DNA of 62,501 bases from Alphaproteobacteria bacterium. GTDB lineage: Bacteria > Pseudomonadota > Alphaproteobacteria > Rickettsiales > UBA8987. Within the stretch, counting starts at the first letter, position 1, and each line of letters begins with the position of its first letter. The notes under the pieces are model-generated. The model did not search any database. It had not been told where the DNA came from and saw only the letters and a list, made by a program, of their open reading frames with translations. This document shows, piece by piece, positions 7,343 to 62,501 of this stretch. The position numbers and the translations under genes were made by a program. The stretch is from NCBI GenBank assembly GCA_030429725.1, contig JAUIEX010000003.1:1-62501 (forward strand), given 5' to 3'.

Positions 7343-9064
7343 ATGCTGCGCCTCATGCGCATTCAGATTGAACAGATCAGCCCGGAAGTGGGCGCGATTG
7401 ATAAAAACCTTGCGCTGCTGCGTGGCTATCTGACGGCGGATGCGGATATTATTTTATTTCCGGAGCTGTGCATCAGCGGCTATCCGCCGGAGGATCTGGT
7501 GTTGCTGCCGGCTTTTCAGGAAGCCTGCCGTGATGCCGTGTTATCACTTGCCGCGGAAACCAAACAAGGCGGCGCGGCACTGATGGTGGGTGCGCCATGG
7601 GCGGAAGACGGCAAGATTTATAACGCCACCTTCCTGCTGGCCGATGGCGGCATTGCCCACCGGCAATATAAGCATGCTTTGCCGAATTACGGCGTGTTTG
7701 ATGAGGCGCGTCTGTTCAGCGCCGGCGCCCTCCCAAAACCATTCCAATTCCGAAATGAAACCTTTGGGCTGTTGATTTGTGAAGATTTATGGGATCAAAC
7801 CGTGCCGGTTTCACTTGCGGGTTCGTCACTTGTTTTTTCCATCAATGCTTCGCCTTATGAGGTGAATAAAACGGCGCTGCGCCGTCAGCGCGCCCGCCAT
7901 GCGGCGGCACAAACCGGCGCCCCGCTGATTTACGTGAACCAGCTTTGCGGGCAGGATGATCTGGTGTTTGACGGTGGCTCCTTCGTGCTGAATGCGGCGG
8001 GAGAGGAAATTCTGACCCTGCCGCATTTTGAAGTGGGGAGTGCGGTGTTGGCATTTTCTAATAGTTCCCTGAATGTTGTTCCTGAACATCCCATGGAACG
8101 GGGCTCAGGGCTGCGCTCGCCTGCTGGCGCGCAGGATAGGAATGATTCCGCCCCCCCACCTGAAACTGCAATTGCAGTTTCAGACTCCCTCACAAATGGG
8201 GAGTTATCTTACATCTATCAGGCGATGATGCTGGCGCTTTCCGCCTATGTGGAGAAGAATCATTTTCCCGGCGTGTTGATTGGCCTCTCCGGCGGGATTG
8301 ATTCCGCCCTTTCCGCTGCCATTGCCGTGGACGCGCTTGGGGCGGAACGTGTGCAGACGGTGATGCTGCCTTCGGAATTTACGTCACAGGAAAGTCTGGA
8401 AGATGCCGCCAGGTGCGCCGAAATGCTGGGCTGCCTCTATGATATCATACCTATTGATAGCGCACGCGCCGCTGTCACACAGGAACTTTTGCCTTTTTTT
8501 GAGGGCACAAAGCCCGGGCTGGCGGAAGAAAATATCCAGTCCCGCCTGCGCGGCTTGCTGCTGATGGCGCTATCCAACAAATATGGTAAAATGGTGCTTT
8601 CCACGGGCAATAAGTCCGAGATGGCAGTGGGTTACGCCACCTTATACGGCGATATGTGCGGCGGTTATAACGTTCTGAAAGATGTCTATAAATCCACTGT
8701 TTTTGAACTGGCGCGCTGGCGCAACGCGCATATTCCGCCGGCAGCGAAAGGTGGAAACGCCATGGCGATGCCGGAGCGGGTGATCACCAAGCCGCCTTCG
8801 GCGGAATTGCGCCATGACCAGAAAGATGAGGATTCCCTGCCGCCTTATCCGGTGCTGGATGAAATTCTGCGTCACTTCATCGAAGGGCAAATGCGCCCGC
8901 GTGACATCATTGCCAAAGGCTTTGATGAGGCTGCCGTCCGCCATATTGTGCAGCTGGTTCACCGCGCGGAATATAAGCGCCGGCAATCCCCGCCGGGGGT
9001 CAAAATCGGCACGCGCCCCTTCAGCCGCGACCGCCGCTTTCCCATCACGAACGGGTTTTTCTGA
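7343..9064 (+). CDS. nadE: Glutamine-dependent NAD+ synthetase carrying an in-frame palindromic insert
   Basis: Nitrilase domain (FPELCISGYPPEDL, LICEDLW) plus synthetase domain (GLSGGIDS, ENIQSRLRG, TGNKSE, PPSAEL). Confidence 0.95.
   Translation: MLRLMRIQIEQISPEVGAIDKNLALLRGYLTADADIILFPELCISGYPPEDLVLLPAFQEACRDAVLSLAAETKQGGAALMVGAPWAEDGKIYNATFLLADGGIAHRQYKHALPNYGVFDEARLFSAGALPKPFQFRNETFGLLICEDLWDQTVPVSLAGSSLVFSINASPYEVNKTALRRQRARHAAAQTGAPLIYVNQLCGQDDLVFDGGSFVLNAAGEEILTLPHFEVGSAVLAFSNSSLNVVPEHPMERGSGLRSPAGAQDRNDSAPPPETAIAVSDSLTNGELSYIYQAMMLALSAYVEKNHFPGVLIGLSGGIDSALSAAIAVDALGAERVQTVMLPSEFTSQESLEDAARCAEMLGCLYDIIPIDSARAAVTQELLPFFEGTKPGLAEENIQSRLRGLLLMALSNKYGKMVLSTGNKSEMAVGYATLYGDMCGGYNVLKDVYKSTVFELARWRNAHIPPAAKGGNAMAMPERVITKPPSAELRHDQKDEDSLPPYPVLDEILRHFIEGQMRPRDIIAKGFDEAAVRHIVQLVHRAEYKRRQSPPGVKIGTRPFSRDRRFPITNGFF
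8064..8208 (+). repeat. Palindromic element family A, in-frame inside nadE
   Basis: Aligns along its length with the reverse complement of ubiD 57833-57986; hairpins CTGAAACTGCA/TGCAGTTTCAG and ACTCCC/GGGAGT. Confidence 0.85.
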
Positions 9065-55322: not shown

Positions 55323-56789
55323 ATGACAACCCAGGAAAACTCATCACAGATCACCATCACCGTGGAGCAGGCGGCTTCTTTCTTCAAGCAGCAACTGCTT
55401 GATATTATTGATGATAAAGCGACATTTGATGCGCTGAAAGGAAACCTGAAGGATGCGCTTAGAGAGAGTGACTTGTGGGGCGCCGGCACATTGACTTTTG
55501 TCGGCCAGGCCGAAACAAAGAGACTGCTGGAGAAACAATTTGATGACCCGCAGACAGCGGCGTACATCAAACAGATTCTGTTTAAGGATCAAGATGAAAT
55601 CTCCTTAAACGAACTGCAAACTAATTTTGATGCGTGCTGCCGGGGCGAAGGGCTGGACAATATTAGCGAGGACGCCAAATATGTGATGGCGGCGGCCAAA
55701 GCCGGGCAGAAAACCGTGCCGCATCGCTTTAATTTTCCCCATCCCAGCAATCTGGCAGCATTGGAAGATGCCGGGGTGGCGGTGGTGAAGACGAGGAGCG
55801 TGCTCCCCAAACCACAAGGCTTTCCGGTGACGCGGCAGCCTGATCGTGATGAAACCGGCAAGGAAAGCGATGAAACACATGGGCTGAACTGGCCGGAACC
55901 GCTGGGAGGCAACGAGAAACAGTCGGATGCTCAGGATGCGGATACGCCGCCGACCCCCCAGCCCCAACCCAAGCAAACAACATCACGCGATGAAACAGAT
56001 GCGGAAGTTGAGGAAGATGAGATAGCCGTGACCGACCGCCGTCATTTACGCCGCCAGCTGCGGGAAAGTGCGGAGGAATTTCGCCAAAGCCTACGCCGGA
56101 ATGAGCCGGCCTTTGAAGAAGATTTCGCCGAGTTGGAAGCCGAAATGGACGCTTTTTATGAAGCACTGCGGAACACCCATGCCGAGGGGCATGACGTTTC
56201 CCGCCGCCATCCAACGGCAGAGGATAAAGAACGCCGGCAGGAAATTCGCCAGGAGCGCAGGGATTTTGAGCGGGGCACGGATGAGCATTGGGAGCTAAAC
56301 CGGGAATTTAACCGCACCGGCCACGCGCTGGAAGGGCTGAAAAATTTACGCGATGATCTGATGCTGCAATTGCGGGAAAGCAAGCGGGACTCTGCCGATT
56401 TACGCGGCCCTATCGCGCTGGAGGGATACCTGGATCCGGATCGCCGGGAGCTGCGTCAGGAACGCCGCGAGCTGCGGGAAAATCTGCGGGAAACACGCCA
56501 CGCGCTGCGAGAGGCGCGCCACGCGCTGCGCCATCAGGATATTTATCTGAACGATTCCAATAATCTGGAACCGCTGGAAACCGCCAAAGAAAAATTACAG
56601 GAATTGCAGGAGCTTTACGCCGAAAATGGCCTGCAGCGGCAGGAAAAGCGCCTGCTGAAAGATCTGGGCAAAGACCTTAAACGCATGGGCAAAATGGATG
56701 ATGTGGGCGAAGCGATGCGTGATTTTAACCTGCGCGTTTCCAACCTGGTGGATGCCCGCACGCCGGATAATGGGCGCGACAAGGGCTAG
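55323..56789 (+). CDS. Orphan protein, 488 aa, with Arg/Glu-rich coiled-coil C-terminal half
   Basis: Long ORF; ELRQERRELRENLRETRHALREARHALR; CtrA-type promoter. Confidence 0.75.
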   Translation: MTTQENSSQITITVEQAASFFKQQLLDIIDDKATFDALKGNLKDALRESDLWGAGTLTFVGQAETKRLLEKQFDDPQTAAYIKQILFKDQDEISLNELQTNFDACCRGEGLDNISEDAKYVMAAAKAGQKTVPHRFNFPHPSNLAALEDAGVAVVKTRSVLPKPQGFPVTRQPDRDETGKESDETHGLNWPEPLGGNEKQSDAQDADTPPTPQPQPKQTTSRDETDAEVEEDEIAVTDRRHLRRQLRESAEEFRQSLRRNEPAFEEDFAELEAEMDAFYEALRNTHAEGHDVSRRHPTAEDKERRQEIRQERRDFERGTDEHWELNREFNRTGHALEGLKNLRDDLMLQLRESKRDSADLRGPIALEGYLDPDRRELRQERRELRENLRETRHALREARHALRHQDIYLNDSNNLEPLETAKEKLQELQELYAENGLQRQEKRLLKDLGKDLKRMGKMDDVGEAMRDFNLRVSNLVDARTPDNGRDKG

Positions 56790-56864
56790 AACTCATAGCC
56801 GCGCAACAGGGCGCAACCATCACCAGGGCTGGATTCCTGCATCAAACCCATCTATAAGCGCCGC

Positions 56865-58838
56865 ATGGGCGCACCGTTTGAATCACTTCGCGATTTTTTG
56901 AAGCATCTGGAAAAGCAGGGCGAGCTGAAACGCATCAGCGAACCGGTTTCGACCTATCTGGAGATGACGGAAATTCATAAGCGCGTGCTGGAAGCCGGCG
57001 GGCCGGCACTGCTGTTTGAAAAGCCTGTAAAACTCCCCCCTGGAGGGGGAGTCGCAGAATCTCACCAACGCGAAGTGTTGAGAGAGGATGCGGTGGGGGG
57101 GCAATCGCGGGATGGAACGCCCCCCCACGACTCAGCCTCTGGCGAGGCTTCGTCTGCTCCCCCTCCGGGGGGGAGCTATGGTCTCTCAAAACCCATCCCC
57201 GTCCTATGCAACCTTTTCGGCACGGTGGAGCGGGTGGCGGCCGCCATTGGCCGCAAGCCGGAAGAGCTGCGTGATGTGGGAAAAATGCTGGCCTTTCTGC
57301 GCCAGCCGGAGCCACCAACGCGCTTTCGGGAAGCTTTAGACCTGCTGCCGCTGGCCAAAACCATGCTGACCATGAAGCCGAAAACGGTGAAAAAAGTACC
57401 GTGTCAGGAGGTGGTGATCACCGGGGATGATGTGGATTTATCCATCCTGCCGATTCAGACCAACTGGCCGGGGGACGCGGCACCGCTGATCACCTGGCCG
57501 TTGGTGGTGACACAGGGGCCAACCAAAAGCAAGGAGGGAAGAGTAAAGAGGGAAGAGGGAAGAGGGAAGAGTGCGGACGCCCCCCCACCTGCATCACAGA
57601 TGCAGACTCCCCCACGGGTGGGGAGTGATCATTCCGAACCCCTTCATTATCCCTTGATGAGGGAGTCAGAGCCGCAACGCGGATCGGGCGGGGGTGTCAG
57701 AGAAGATGATCAAAAATATAATCTAGGCATTTACCGCATGCAGGTGACGGGTAAAAACACCACGCTGATGCGCTGGCTGAAGCATCGTGGCGGGGCGCAG
57801 CATCACAAACGCTGGCAGGAACAAAGTTCAGGGATAACTCCCCCTTCACGGGGGAGTCTGAATTTTGATAAAAATTCAGGTGGGGGTCAGATTGCAGAGA
57901 ATGATAAAACGGGTGGAGGCCAGCAGGCCGACCCAGCCCTGAGCCCCGTCTCATTGAAAAATCAGGAAGATTTTTCAGGAGACAGCTTAAAGATGCCCGT
58001 GGCCGCTGTCATCGGGGCGGATCCGGGCACAACATTAGCGGCGGTGACGCCCGTGCCCGACACGCTTTCGGAATATGAATTTGCGGGCTTGCTGCGCGGG
58101 AAACGCGTGGAGCTGGTGGATTGCAAAACCGTGCCGCTGAAAGTGCCCGCCCATGCGGAAATTGTGCTGGAAGGCTATGTGAGTCTGGAGGATTATGGCG
58201 CGGAGGGGCCTTACGGCGACCATACCGGATTTTACAATGAGGTGGAGCAGTTCCCTGTTTTCACCTGCACGGCGATCACCATGCGCAAAGACCCGATCTA
58301 CTTAAGCACCTATACCGGCAAGCCGCCGGATGAGCCTTCCATTCTGGGTGAGGCGCTCAATGAAGTGTTCATTCCGCTGCTACAACAGCAATTTCCGGAG
58401 ATTGTGGATTTTTGGCTGCCGCCGGAAGGGTGCAGCTATCGCGTGGCGGTGGTGAGCATTAAAAAAGCCTATCCCGGCCATGCCAAGCGCGTGATGATGG
58501 GCGTGTGGAGCTATCTGCGACAGTTCATGTATACCAAATTTGTAATTGTGGTGGATCATCACATAAACTGCCGTGACTGGAAGGAGGTGATCTGGGCAAT
58601 TTCCACCCAGATGGACCCGCAGCGCGACACCACCTTCATTGAGCGCACGCCGATTGATTATCTGGATTTTGCCTCCCCGGAATCGGGGCTTGGCAGCAAA
58701 ATGGGGCTGGATGCCACGGCCAAGACCGGCAATGAAACTCACCGCGAATGGGGGCAGCCGATTGAGATGAGTGAGGATGTCATCGCCCGTGTGGACGCGC
58801 TGTGGGAAAAATTAGGGCTGGGTGAGCCGGAGAAATAG
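56865..58838 (+). CDS. ubiD: UbiD family decarboxylase with three in-frame inserts
   Basis: [70 protein letters not shown]; 657 aa versus about 500 aa usual. Confidence 0.95.
57033..57176. repeat. Palindromic element family A, ubiD insert 1
   Basis: CTCCCCC/GGGGGAG terminal hairpins at both ends, GTGGGGGGGC...GCCCCCCCAC inner stem, AGCCTC/GAGGCT hairpin. Confidence 0.88.
57531..57696. repeat. ubiD insert 2: AAGAGGG heptamer array plus two family-A half elements
   Basis: (AAGAGGG) x3.7 at 57546-57571; GCCCCCCCAC-CTGCATC/GATGCAG-ACTCCCC/GGGGAGT at 57579-57626; TCCCT/AGGGA-GTC...GCGGGGGTG at 57650-57696. Confidence 0.82.
57833..57986 (-). repeat. Palindromic element family A, ubiD insert 3 (inverted relative to the nadE copy)
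   Basis: ACTCCCCC/GGGGGAGT, CTGAATTTT/AAAATTCAG and TGAAAAATC/GATTTTTCA hairpins; 16-bp exact match to the nadE copy. Confidence 0.88.
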
Positions 58839-61326: not shown

Positions 61327-62052
61327 ATGGACGATCTTTTGCGTGAATTTCTGGACGAAACCAACGAGGCGCTTGAGTCTCTGGATGCGGATTTTGTCAC
61401 GCTTGAACAGGACCCAAGCAATGCCGATATCGTTGGAAACATCTTTCGCGTGATGCACACCATTAAAGGCACTTGCGGGTTTTTAGGGCTGGAACGGCTG
61501 GAAAAAGTGGCGCACGCCGCCGAGGATGTGATGGATAATATTCGCGACGGTAAGCTCAGCGCTTCACCGGAGGTTATCTCGGTTATTTTTCATGCCACGG
61601 ATTGCATTAAGGACATCGTTGAAAAACTGGGAGAAACCGGCGCAGAACCCACGGGCGACGACAGCGCCTTGATTGCGGAGTTAAACCAGTGCGCCGCCGG
61701 TGGCGCCTCCTCATCCGGCGCGGCAGCAACGGCAAATGCCGCAACTTCCACCGGCTCCGGCATCCCGGATATTGAAGAAGATATCATGACCCGTGGCGGC
61801 ACCACGCCGGATCTGGACATGGACATTGATTTTGAGCCGGTGATGGCAGATTTTGCTGCCGACGAGGCCGCCCTTCCCGCCGCCATTGATCTGGAAAACA
61901 ATCCCGCCATCGATGCGGAGATTAAAGCCGCGGAAGCGGCACTGGCCAAGGCGGAGGCAGAAAGTGAATCTCCACGGGCCAAGGCCCGTGGTATCACGCT
62001 TCGCTACGCTCAGATTTCAAGCTGCGCTTGTCCAGAATCTTCTTTTCCCTGA
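61327..62052 (+). pseudogene. cheA: Chemotaxis kinase CheA N-terminal fragment (HPt domain plus linker), interrupted by IS200
   Basis: MDDLLREFLDETNE, IFRVMHTIKGTCGFLGL; after ...AEAESE the frame runs into the IS end hairpin and stops at 62052. Confidence 0.85.
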
Positions 62053-62501
62053 TGTTCGATATAACGTCTGATAATTGCTTCATCGACACCCACTGTGCTA
62101 ACGAAATAGCCATCGGACCATATGCCATCTGCTCCCCAATATACTTTACGCATGTAGTCAAATCGGCGCTTCATCAATCGACCAGTATGCGATTTAAACG
62201 TACGCACCACATCACTAACACGCATCTTGGGAGGAATTGATAACAACATATGGATATGGTCAATATCATGATTTACCTCAAGTATTTCTACTTCTGGCAG
62301 CATCTCGTGAAAGCTTGTTATCAATTCCCGCAGATAGGCAAATGATCCTTCGTTGAAAATCTTTCGACGGTATTTACTCGTTAAAACAATATGATATTCA
62401 CATCGATAAGCACAGTGGGCTTGTTTCCTTAGGCGCATAAAGAAGATTCTGGACGCACTTCATCCATGGGGCAAGCCCCATGGTTTTTGTGTGCCTATAA
62501 A
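61965..62501 (-). mobile_element. IS200/IS605-family element (tnpA only)
   Basis: Subterminal hairpins CCACGGGCC-aa-GGCCCGTGG (61972-61991) and CCATGGGGC-aa-GCCCCATGG (62464-62483) flank a Y1 transposase; left end may extend past the window. Confidence 0.88.
62010..62438 (-). CDS. tnpA: IS200-family HUH/Y1 transposase
   Basis: YHIVLTSKYRR, DHIHML (HUH), WSDGYFVSTVG, catalytic YIEHQ. Confidence 0.95.
   Translation of the reverse strand: MRLRKQAHCAYRCEYHIVLTSKYRRKIFNEGSFAYLRELITSFHEMLPEVEILEVNHDIDHIHMLLSIPPKMRVSDVVRTFKSHTGRLMKRRFDYMRKVYWGADGIWSDGYFVSTVGVDEAIIRRYIEHQGKEDSGQAQLEI

Follow-up and report, generated by a model that had tools for sequence, protein, structure and literature searches.

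The window analysed here is the whole 62,501-nt stretch of contig JAUIEX010000003.1 (contig C63) from a member of the Rickettsiales lineage UBA8987 (Alphaproteobacteria; GenBank assembly GCA_030429725.1), and it carries a ubiD gene lengthened by three extra blocks of coding DNA. The genome comprises 1.74 Mb in 74 contigs with 51% G+C and is 98% complete. The ubiD open reading frame (ORF), identified by ORF calling, Pfam and homology, occupies positions 56865-58838 on the plus strand and encodes 657 aa, of which about 500 aa remain without the inserts. An earlier note on this DNA had proposed that the blocks are selfish palindromic elements inserted in frame, and we analysed the gene, its relatives and the repeat family to which the blocks belong.

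The protein was matched by the Pfam domains UbiD_N, UbiD and UbiD_C only, with no Hint, intein or endonuclease domain. Its best matches are alphaproteobacterial sequences. The match to E. coli UbiD (2idb, 5m1c; E ~1e-192) is split into four collinear stretches, with breaks directly after LLFEKP, VVTQGP(TKS) and HHKRWQ, and alignment to relatives showed that these three sites are empty in the UbiDs (~500 aa) of the family and the order. In the same alignment, insert 1 covers 57033-57176 (plus strand; 144 nt = 48 codons, L57-S104, reading LPPGGG...PPPGGS between LFEKPVK and YGLSKP) and insert 2 covers approximately 57528-57701 (plus strand; ~58 codons). Insert 3 covers 57831-57983 (plus strand; 153 nt = 51 codons, G323-D373), and the insert lengths span 144-174 nt. 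The three in-frame blocks described in the earlier note were thus confirmed, with 48, ~58 and 51 residues.

The inserts were mapped on a structure predicted with AlphaFold2 (AF2) from an 82-sequence alignment. Residues 61-104, 222-280 and 325-372, which coincide with the inserts, are the sole parts with a predicted local distance difference test (pLDDT) score under 50; the core scores ~85-95, and its target-normalised template modelling (TM) score against E. coli UbiD structures is 0.88-0.90. The three insert sites are predicted to be disordered loops, in agreement with the tolerant loops suggested in the earlier note. The UbiD catalytic network has the motif R-Xn-E-X4-(E/D) (PMC5818171); the catalytic residues R291, E447 and D452 of the window protein are intact, and all stand in invariant alignment columns.

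Insertions at these loops were also found in other UbiDs. Among the best 120 homologues in public data, 14 are longer than 525 aa, and the long UbiDs that were aligned, from uncultured sources, have unrelated extra residues at the same three loops. Site 1 of the homologue P0069 holds an outward dimer (type A, see below) with a variant hairpin 1 (CCCCTCCC-AAT-GGGAGGGG), and site 1 of P0098 holds an array of the heptamer GAGTCCA. These insertions are independent of those in the window, and the loops are recurrent sites of landing or tolerance. The 630-aa homologue P0007 owes its length to a partial duplication of the C-terminal domain (~115 aa after ...SGLGGK), not to loop inserts.

Public metagenome data were used to evaluate the assembly. 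Logan contigs cover 56700-57060, 57110-57377, 57398-57864 (the whole of insert 2) and 57955-58508, and the gaps fall only inside repeated cores. These contigs span the junctions, so misassembly, a possibility raised in the earlier note, is not indicated. The ubiD stretch is present in two DNA metagenome runs, one labelled biofloc, whose depths and contigs are near-identical; they are therefore probably one data set and do not provide independent support. The public-run search with the ubiD locus matched DNA runs and no RNA run. A further contig of the same metagenome (depth ~8) matches ubiD at 90% or more in conserved pieces only, skipping 57511-57768 and 57802-58041, and is probably the ubiD of a related organism without inserts 2 and 3. 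Directly upstream of ubiD, a 488-aa ORF (55323-56789, plus strand) has a highly charged, Arg/Glu-rich and repetitive C-terminal half (RRELRQERRELRENLRETRHALREARHALRH).

One module, which we call M1, is the building block of all three UbiD inserts. It consists of hairpin 1, CTCCCC(C)-N5-GGGGGAG, followed by a covarying hairpin 2 and then GTGGGGG(GG), usually with (A)TAA ahead. A regular expression matched 82 modules in 58 islands genome-wide, five of the modules being in ubiD, and CTCCCCC-N5-GGGGGAG was found in all 82. The strict M1 pattern gave 72 matches in this genome and the reversed-pattern control gave 0; G6 and C6 runs are otherwise depleted genome-wide (142 and 170 observed vs ~470 expected). 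The hairpin grammar proposed in the earlier note, CTCCCC-loop-GGGGAG, a hairpin and G(T/C)GGGGG, is therefore real, and the inserts are not single-copy sequences. The stems of hairpin 2 vary yet stay paired, as in TCTGAATTT/AAATTCAG, TCGAGGAG/CGACTCG, CTGCATC/GATGCAG, CGGAATC/GATTCCG and others. Perfect pairing of the outer stem averages 5.2 nt, compared with 1.95 nt in shuffles, and many stems covary. As a single strand, insert 1 folds into four-way nested hairpins at -51.5 kcal/mol (z = -7.3 against shuffles); the corresponding z values are -5.7 for the M1 of insert 3, -2.7 for the degenerate core of insert 2 and -3.7 for the second module of insert 3, M3. An Rfam search over the locus with permissive filters gave no match close to the threshold; the best candidates were plant microRNA hairpins and whalefall-1, the latter with 16 bits where the gathering score is 37.

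The unpaired GTGGGGG of M1 mirrors the purine arm GGGGGAG, with T opposite A. In a class II triplex, the 3' reverse-Hoogsteen domain mirrors the purine arm, with G on G and T or A on A (PMC4666352). The relation was examined in lineages with differing arms, using 32 units that flank a DUF559 nuclease domain (see below): the 3' G-run was related to the purine arm by mirror only in 25 cases, by direct repeat only in 0 and by both in 15, and 18 were unresolved, mostly owing to the arm definition used. Examples of a purine arm with its G-run are GGGGGGAGGG with GGGAGGGGG, AGGAGGGG with GGGGGAGG, GGGGGAGAGGG with GGGTGAGGGGG and GAGGAGAGGGGG with GGGGTGAGGAG. Judged by its sequence, M1 is a purine-motif intrastrand-triplex design of class II, as in the BoxC/PIT/TMECO repeats, with loop 2 enlarged into a hairpin.

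The consensus of the BoxC/PIT/TMECO repeats is CCCTCNCCC-N3-6-GGGNGAGGG-N3-GGGNGAGGG (PMC4666352), and M1 shares with these repeats (Hoyne et al. 2000; Holder et al. 2015, PMC4666352) the order of pyrimidine arm, loop, purine arm and mirror G-run. BoxC/PIT/TMECO repeats are likewise found singly or in inverted pairs with 16-60 nt between the members (PMC4666352), and many of the variant modules that flank DUF559 in the order match the TMECO consensus almost exactly. M1 departs from the consensus in its arms (CTCCCCC/GGGGGAG/GTGGGGG) and in loop 2, which is a covarying hairpin of 15-40 nt, not N3. TMECO repeats are reported to be always intergenic and unlinked to mobile elements (Holder et al., PMC4666352), whereas 60% of the modules here are intragenic and a nuclease cassette is associated with the family. 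The design indicates that the structural family is of the BoxC/PIT/TMECO type and not CIR or RIME, the CIR and RIME sequences themselves not having been compared.

A module either stands alone, is paired with a second one in an outward (type A) or inward (type B) dimer, or is joined to hairpin modules of another kind (type C), and the three inserts differ in this respect. Insert 1 (57033-57176, plus strand) is a type A dimer, M1(+), an 18-nt spacer and M1(-), forming the four-way nested hairpin. Its M1(+) (57033-57101, plus strand) reads CTCCCCCC-TGG-AGGGGGAG, with hairpin 2 TCGCAGAATCTC...GAGAGGATGCG and then GTGGGGGGG; the central spacer (57102-57119) is CAATCGCGGGATGGAACG; and M1(-) (57120-57175, minus strand) is of the module type found at the right end of the DUF559 units in the isoleucyl-tRNA synthetase (IleRS) of genomes G060 and G011. 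The arms at 57033-57051 and 57157-57175 are 95% complementary, as terminal inverted repeats. A copy in the leucyl-tRNA synthetase (LeuRS) gene (C65:49500-49647) is 90% identical to insert 1 and has the identical spacer, and this common internal spacer indicates that the nuclease-less dimer itself was copied. There are about a dozen full type A copies, in genes for LeuRS, CarB, a FadB-like protein, ClpB, pilin-like proteins and others; about 10 were aligned, and their ends are sharp.

Insert 2 is of type B, in which M1(-) is followed by M1(+) with hairpin 1 inside. It consists of M1(-) at 57580-57625 (minus strand; CCCCCCCAC-CTGCATCACAGATGCAG-ACTCCCCCACGGGTGGGGAG) and a degenerate M1(+) half at 57607-57694 (plus strand), and further type B copies lie in genes for an acyl-CoA dehydrogenase (ACAD), valyl-tRNA synthetase (ValRS) and DnaE. 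On its 5' side is a GGAAGAG heptamer array (57525-57572, plus strand), and similar arrays adjoin modules elsewhere in the genome. Heptamer arrays (GGAAGAG; GAGTTCA/GAGTCCA) repeatedly adjoin the hairpin-1 side of modules, and three units make 21 nt and are thus in frame; they were seen in G000 at C73:19275-19371, C31:14579-14632, C8:98-200 and C67:452-505, in the window at 57525-57572 and at site 1 of L156.

Insert 3 is of type C, M1(+) joined to M3. Its M1(+) (57838-57886, plus strand) reads CTCCCCC-TTCAC-GGGGGAG, TCTGAATTTTGATAAAAATTCAG and GTGGGGG, with the conserved ATAA ahead, and M3 (57915-57985, plus strand) contributes two further hairpins, GGAGGCCAGCAGGCCGACC... and GTCTCATTGAAAAATCAGGAAGATTTTTCAGGAGAC. 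Copies of M3 were found in genes for NadE, RecG and a TrmJ-like protein and at other loci. The window holds a second type C copy at 8064-8208 (minus strand), in a gene read as nadE without a family search; it aligns with insert 3 end to end at 64% identity, with compensatory changes in three stems.

The residence of modules in host genes was analysed genome-wide. ORFs of at least 300 aa contain 50 of the 82 modules, which is the intragenic count that the earlier note had proposed to make, and all six orientation/frame combinations are used. Conserved housekeeping genes with in-frame copies number 17 or more, and about twenty essential genes other than ubiD have been invaded. Among the hosts recognised with Pfam or through reading, ValRS has five islands, DnaE four, CarB and UbiD three each, LeuRS, IleRS, LigA, ThiC and Mfd two each, and ClpB, RecG, MnmG, UDG, the FadB-like gene, ACAD and the pilin-like genes at least one each. 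Pfam confirmed ValRS, DnaE, CarB, LeuRS, IleRS, LigA, Mfd and ClpB as hosts. Coding DNA is not avoided, as 34 of the 58 islands lie in ORFs of at least 300 aa against 38.6 under random placement. Islands are strongly clustered within genes: four genes have at least three islands (0.022 expected; maximum 2 in 2000 trials) and nine have at least two (1.1 expected). The median length of host ORFs is 847 aa vs 440 aa. The earlier note had offered a hotspot or a very high copy number as explanations for three hits in one gene; the repeats are multi-copy, and their clustering within genes is far from random.

The reading frame was maintained, and stops were absent, in every insertion whose host gene is recognised by homology on both sides, which argues for read-through and against removal at the RNA level. 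The TAA/TAG before hairpin 1 is absent in 6/6 copies whose frame would make it a stop, and is kept in 50 of the other 76 (p = 0.003); its replacements are CAA, AAA, TCA or TTA, and UbiD insert 1 is one of the six. This contrast arises partly by construction, as an in-frame stop would destroy an essential gene, and it shows how copies are filtered. Because every one of the six orientation/frame combinations is used to read this DNA, and the sites are empty in relatives, the inserts are not ordinary protein domains shared by orthologues.

The family is patchily distributed. With the strict pattern, M1 was recovered from 4 of the family's 18 genomes and 35 of the order's 201, at 1 to 87 copies each, and the reversed control matched in no genome. 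Genome G011 has an empty-site UbiD and yet carries 87 module copies elsewhere. A stricter 25-base pattern was found at 120 or more loci in public records, and the labels among the matches listed include Alphaproteobacteria, Gammaproteobacteria, Planctomycetota, Nitrospirota, Nitrospinota, Chloroflexota and Actinomycetota. Patchiness within the family together with the spread across phyla points to horizontal movement. Four loci (L051, L087, L102, L103) are contigs of lake metagenome-assembled genomes titled 'Rickettsia typhi isolate ...', with several modules and AT-rich spacers; they are apparently uncultured freshwater alphaproteobacteria under a wrong species label.

In other genomes, pairs of modules enclose a DUF559 domain. 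This domain occurs in 71 of the 201 genomes of the order, comprising 29 of the 35 genomes with M1 and 42 of the 166 without (odds ratio 14, p = 2.6e-10). It lies exactly between M1(+) and M1(-) in G011, G066, G030, G197, G186, G164 and others, and in 20 DUF559 matches sampled regardless of M1, nearly all were bracketed by inverted hairpin-plus-G-run modules with lineage-specific arms. Of 93 strong DUF559 matches, 58 are inside open frames of 300 aa or more and 39 inside open frames of 700 aa or more. Pfam showed the domain embedded in IleRS, ValRS, DnaE, an aminotransferase, shikimate dehydrogenase, Ham1, RecJ and RecO, and PriA, ThiC (twice) and MurD were identified by reading as further DUF559-bearing ORFs. 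The unit brings neither a start nor a stop codon, and in all six cases looked at, the frame in which the left module is read ahead of the domain is constant (SP-x-EGE...GGG). Literature searches found no description of an in-frame DUF559 cassette. In the IleRS of G060 (L163:2-3736, minus strand), an in-frame GNAT acetyltransferase (PF13302, aa 588-731) was observed in addition to the in-frame DUF559 (aa 303-407).

Insert 1 and other nuclease-less elements of this genome were compared with these cassettes. The inverted end modules of insert 1 and of the DUF559 cassette are alike (M1(+)/M1(-)); the DUF559 that lies between the cassette ends is absent from insert 1, where only 18 nt separate the arms. 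The module that closes the IleRS cassettes of G060 and G011 on the right is also the right arm of insert 1, and in a global alignment of insert 1 with a DUF559 unit the right arm is clearly the same, while the left half is uninformative because the left modules differ in subtype. Two ValRS sites that hold nuclease-less elements here hold nuclease-bearing units in orthologues (alignment), and comparison of translated sequences showed same-site occupancy at the C-terminal ThiC site and one DnaE site. At the ValRS site V1 of this genome (L177 aa ~225-290, C74:7000-7200), a ~30-aa spacer between two modules aligns loosely in MAFFT with DUF559 parts of orthologues (GEEASFSEPLPRDEGYP vs GGQHN...QGY); it is too short to score, and may be what an internal deletion left behind. 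The E. coli K-12 gene ycjD, a DUF559 gene (L189, NC_000913.3:1351205-1351760), ends …RRSPSP* inside a TM-type hairpin (CCCTCGCTCTTTCAGGGAGAGGG), and TMECO #9 lies ~170 bp downstream; the TMECO paper (PMC4666352) mentions no nuclease.

These results lead us to a reading to which we assign a probability of about 0.8, namely that the three UbiD blocks are independent insertions of nuclease-less members, resembling MITEs (transposable elements of the miniature inverted-repeat type), of a widespread selfish DNA repeat family. A copy that enters a tolerant surface loop and whose length is a multiple of three would leave the gene unbroken, as modules are rich in G/C runs and stop-free in approximately four of six frames, and the retained copies would be read through as disordered Pro/Gly/Ser-rich loops. 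Elsewhere, module pairs bracket a Vsr-like PD-(D/E)XK DUF559 domain, which would be translated as part of the host protein, and the short dimers here would be derivatives that lost DUF559 and were then copied as such. The UbiD inserts are most likely nuclease-less relatives of the in-frame DUF559 cassette. Same-site occupancy and the fixed frame modestly raise the prospect that the family may be moved by its own nuclease; the identity of the enzyme that moved the inserts we infer only.

The inserts are RPE-like in behaviour and BoxC/PIT/TMECO-type in structure. Rickettsia palindromic elements (RPEs) comprise RPE-1 to RPE-10 (Ogata et al. 2000, 2002, summarised in PMC10969869). Both families are hairpin repeats of ~100-150 bp with many in-frame insertions in unrelated conserved genes of a reduced alphaproteobacterial genome, and RPEs are read through as extra surface peptides, as the UbiD inserts would be, without a known transposase. 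The RPE-like selfish element proposed in the earlier note is accordingly supported by the copy number and the in-frame residence in housekeeping genes. The present family differs from the RPEs in its lineage and, as far as tested, in its triplex-type grammar, its modular architectures and its use of all six frames, and in that M1 spans several phyla and brackets a DUF559 domain elsewhere.

Other mobile elements share some of these properties. Like inteins and introns with homing endonucleases, including those with the Vsr-like EDxHD type (I-Bth0305I, PMC3239194; Dassa et al. 2009, PMC2677866), the DUF559 cassette has a nuclease of the Vsr/PD-(D/E)XK fold, is in frame, recurs at sites in essential genes (aminoacyl-tRNA synthetases, DnaE) and is patchy across lineages. 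In contrast to them, it brings neither a ribozyme nor a splicing domain and would therefore be kept in the protein; its ends are hairpin/triplex structures, it occupies many genes and sites, and the UbiD inserts are without nuclease. Like MITEs and like repetitive extragenic palindromes (REPs) and their paired forms (REPINs) (PMC3733652, PMC10969869), the elements are short, non-autonomous palindromes, often inverted dimers, amplified in the genome. As in MITEs, the ends are inverted, the size is small and the elements have no coding capacity of their own, and nuclease-less copies may relate to a protein-coding relative in a similar way; the partner that shares the ends of the dimers in other genomes encodes a DUF559 nuclease domain, not a known transposase. 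Unlike MITEs, the UbiD elements show no target-site duplication. Unlike REPs and REPINs, they have no GTAG/CGTC tag and no REP-associated tyrosine transposase (RAYT) flanked by repeats, they are mostly intragenic, and a DUF559 domain takes the place of the transposase.

Several observations weigh against this reading or parts of it. No DUF559 was found in this genome with the Pfam model, and a six-frame hmmsearch gave a best E of 0.7 and no remnant. A chimera-query search, built to place such sequences at the top, found no UbiD with a DUF559 cassette in the top 120 of 8000 scored, so the derivation of the UbiD inserts from the nuclease unit is by family resemblance, not by decay in situ. The four further DUF559-bearing ORFs whose size would have fitted are the PriA, ThiC (twice) and MurD sequences mentioned above. 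Many modules are solo, and the nuclease may be a passenger rather than the engine. In the aligned copies and their flanks, neither a target motif nor a duplicated target site was seen, and outside hairpin 1 conservation was confined to the (A)TAA lead of the element itself. Insert 2 ends only ~6 residues ahead of the invariant active-site segment N-L-G-I-Y-R, so its neutrality is not guaranteed and is the least certain of the three. Translation of the inserts, finally, is inferred from the way in which essential genes keep their frame.

Among other explanations, mobilisation by a transposase deserves the most attention. An IS200/IS605-type Y1 (HUH) transposase could mobilise single-stranded hairpin ends, as RAYTs do for REP/REPIN, with DUF559 as cargo between dimer arms. 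The genome does contain two intact IS200-type Y1_Tnp genes, one only 4 kb from ubiD at the contig end (window 62049-62411, minus strand) and one at G000:C39:8569-8925 (minus strand), and the elements are hairpin-based, without target duplication and with REPIN-like inverted dimers. Solo modules also far outnumber nuclease cassettes, and nuclease-less dimers have spread here without any DUF559. However, neither Y1 gene is flanked by M1; each has perfect hairpins of its own, such as CCACGGGCCAAGGCCCGTGG and CCATGGGGCAAGCCCCATGG, that are unrelated to it. The GTAG/CGTC tags of the REP families are absent, and the link of modules to DUF559 is strong and physical. We therefore consider mobilisation by Y1 improbable.

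Somewhat less probable still is structure-driven instability, in which template switching or ectopic gene conversion between triplex/hairpin repeats would copy repeats to new sites. TMECO-type motifs are tied to local genomic instability in E. coli (PMC4666352), and the clustering of elements within genes and contigs, the shuffling of modules into different architectures and the heptamer slippage arrays beside modules all suit such a process. Nevertheless, the sharp ends and the same internal spacer in unlinked genes fit the copy-and-paste of a defined unit, and the exact pattern in several phyla needs horizontal spread of that unit.

It is more doubtful again that usefulness explains why the inserts are kept, whether they provide UbiD with new surface loops or form mRNA or DNA structures tuning expression or co-translational folding. 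None of the three is damaged or out of frame, the enzyme has conserved catalytic residues, and stems show compensatory change, but a structure that serves only the spread of the element would be expected to covary just as much; six-frame reading in different hosts gives unrelated peptides, and the loops, which no relative has, are predicted to be disordered. Removal before or during translation by intron-like excision or ribosomal bypass, or a gene that is an assembly artefact or pseudogene, is least probable of all, despite the very stable insert structures, as frame and freedom from stops are kept in all homology-flanked insertions although modules carry stops in ~1/3 of frames, which removal would not require, and there is no Rfam intron or ribozyme match, no Hint or intein domain in Pfam and no break at the junctions in public-run contigs.

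Returning to the insertion of a selfish repeat family, we suggest more tentatively that the UbiD inserts could be the nuclease-less offspring of an undescribed class of mobile element. This element would be a ~450-bp DUF559 cassette between triplex/hairpin ends, without promoter, start or stop, expressed only when in frame inside an expressed housekeeping gene. It would recur at the same sites in a homing-like manner (aminoacyl-tRNA synthetases, DnaE, ThiC) across families and decay into dimers that can still be copied. If this is true, the BoxC/PIT/TMECO repeats of E. coli and many bacteria would be its ends or relics.

The finding connects RPE-like coding palindromes, BoxC/PIT/TMECO repeats of unexplained origin and DUF559 domains embedded in housekeeping proteins. 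DUF559 with triplex ends is a candidate for a new way in which a nuclease gene can reside in essential genes with no need of splicing. Annotation is affected as well: proteins with such inserts appear too long and show spurious low-complexity "domains", and assemblies break at the repeats. The result further offers a way of testing how variable surface loops arise in conserved enzymes, and the large-scale in-frame colonisation of essential genes, long seen as a curiosity of Rickettsia, extends to another reduced alphaproteobacterial lineage.

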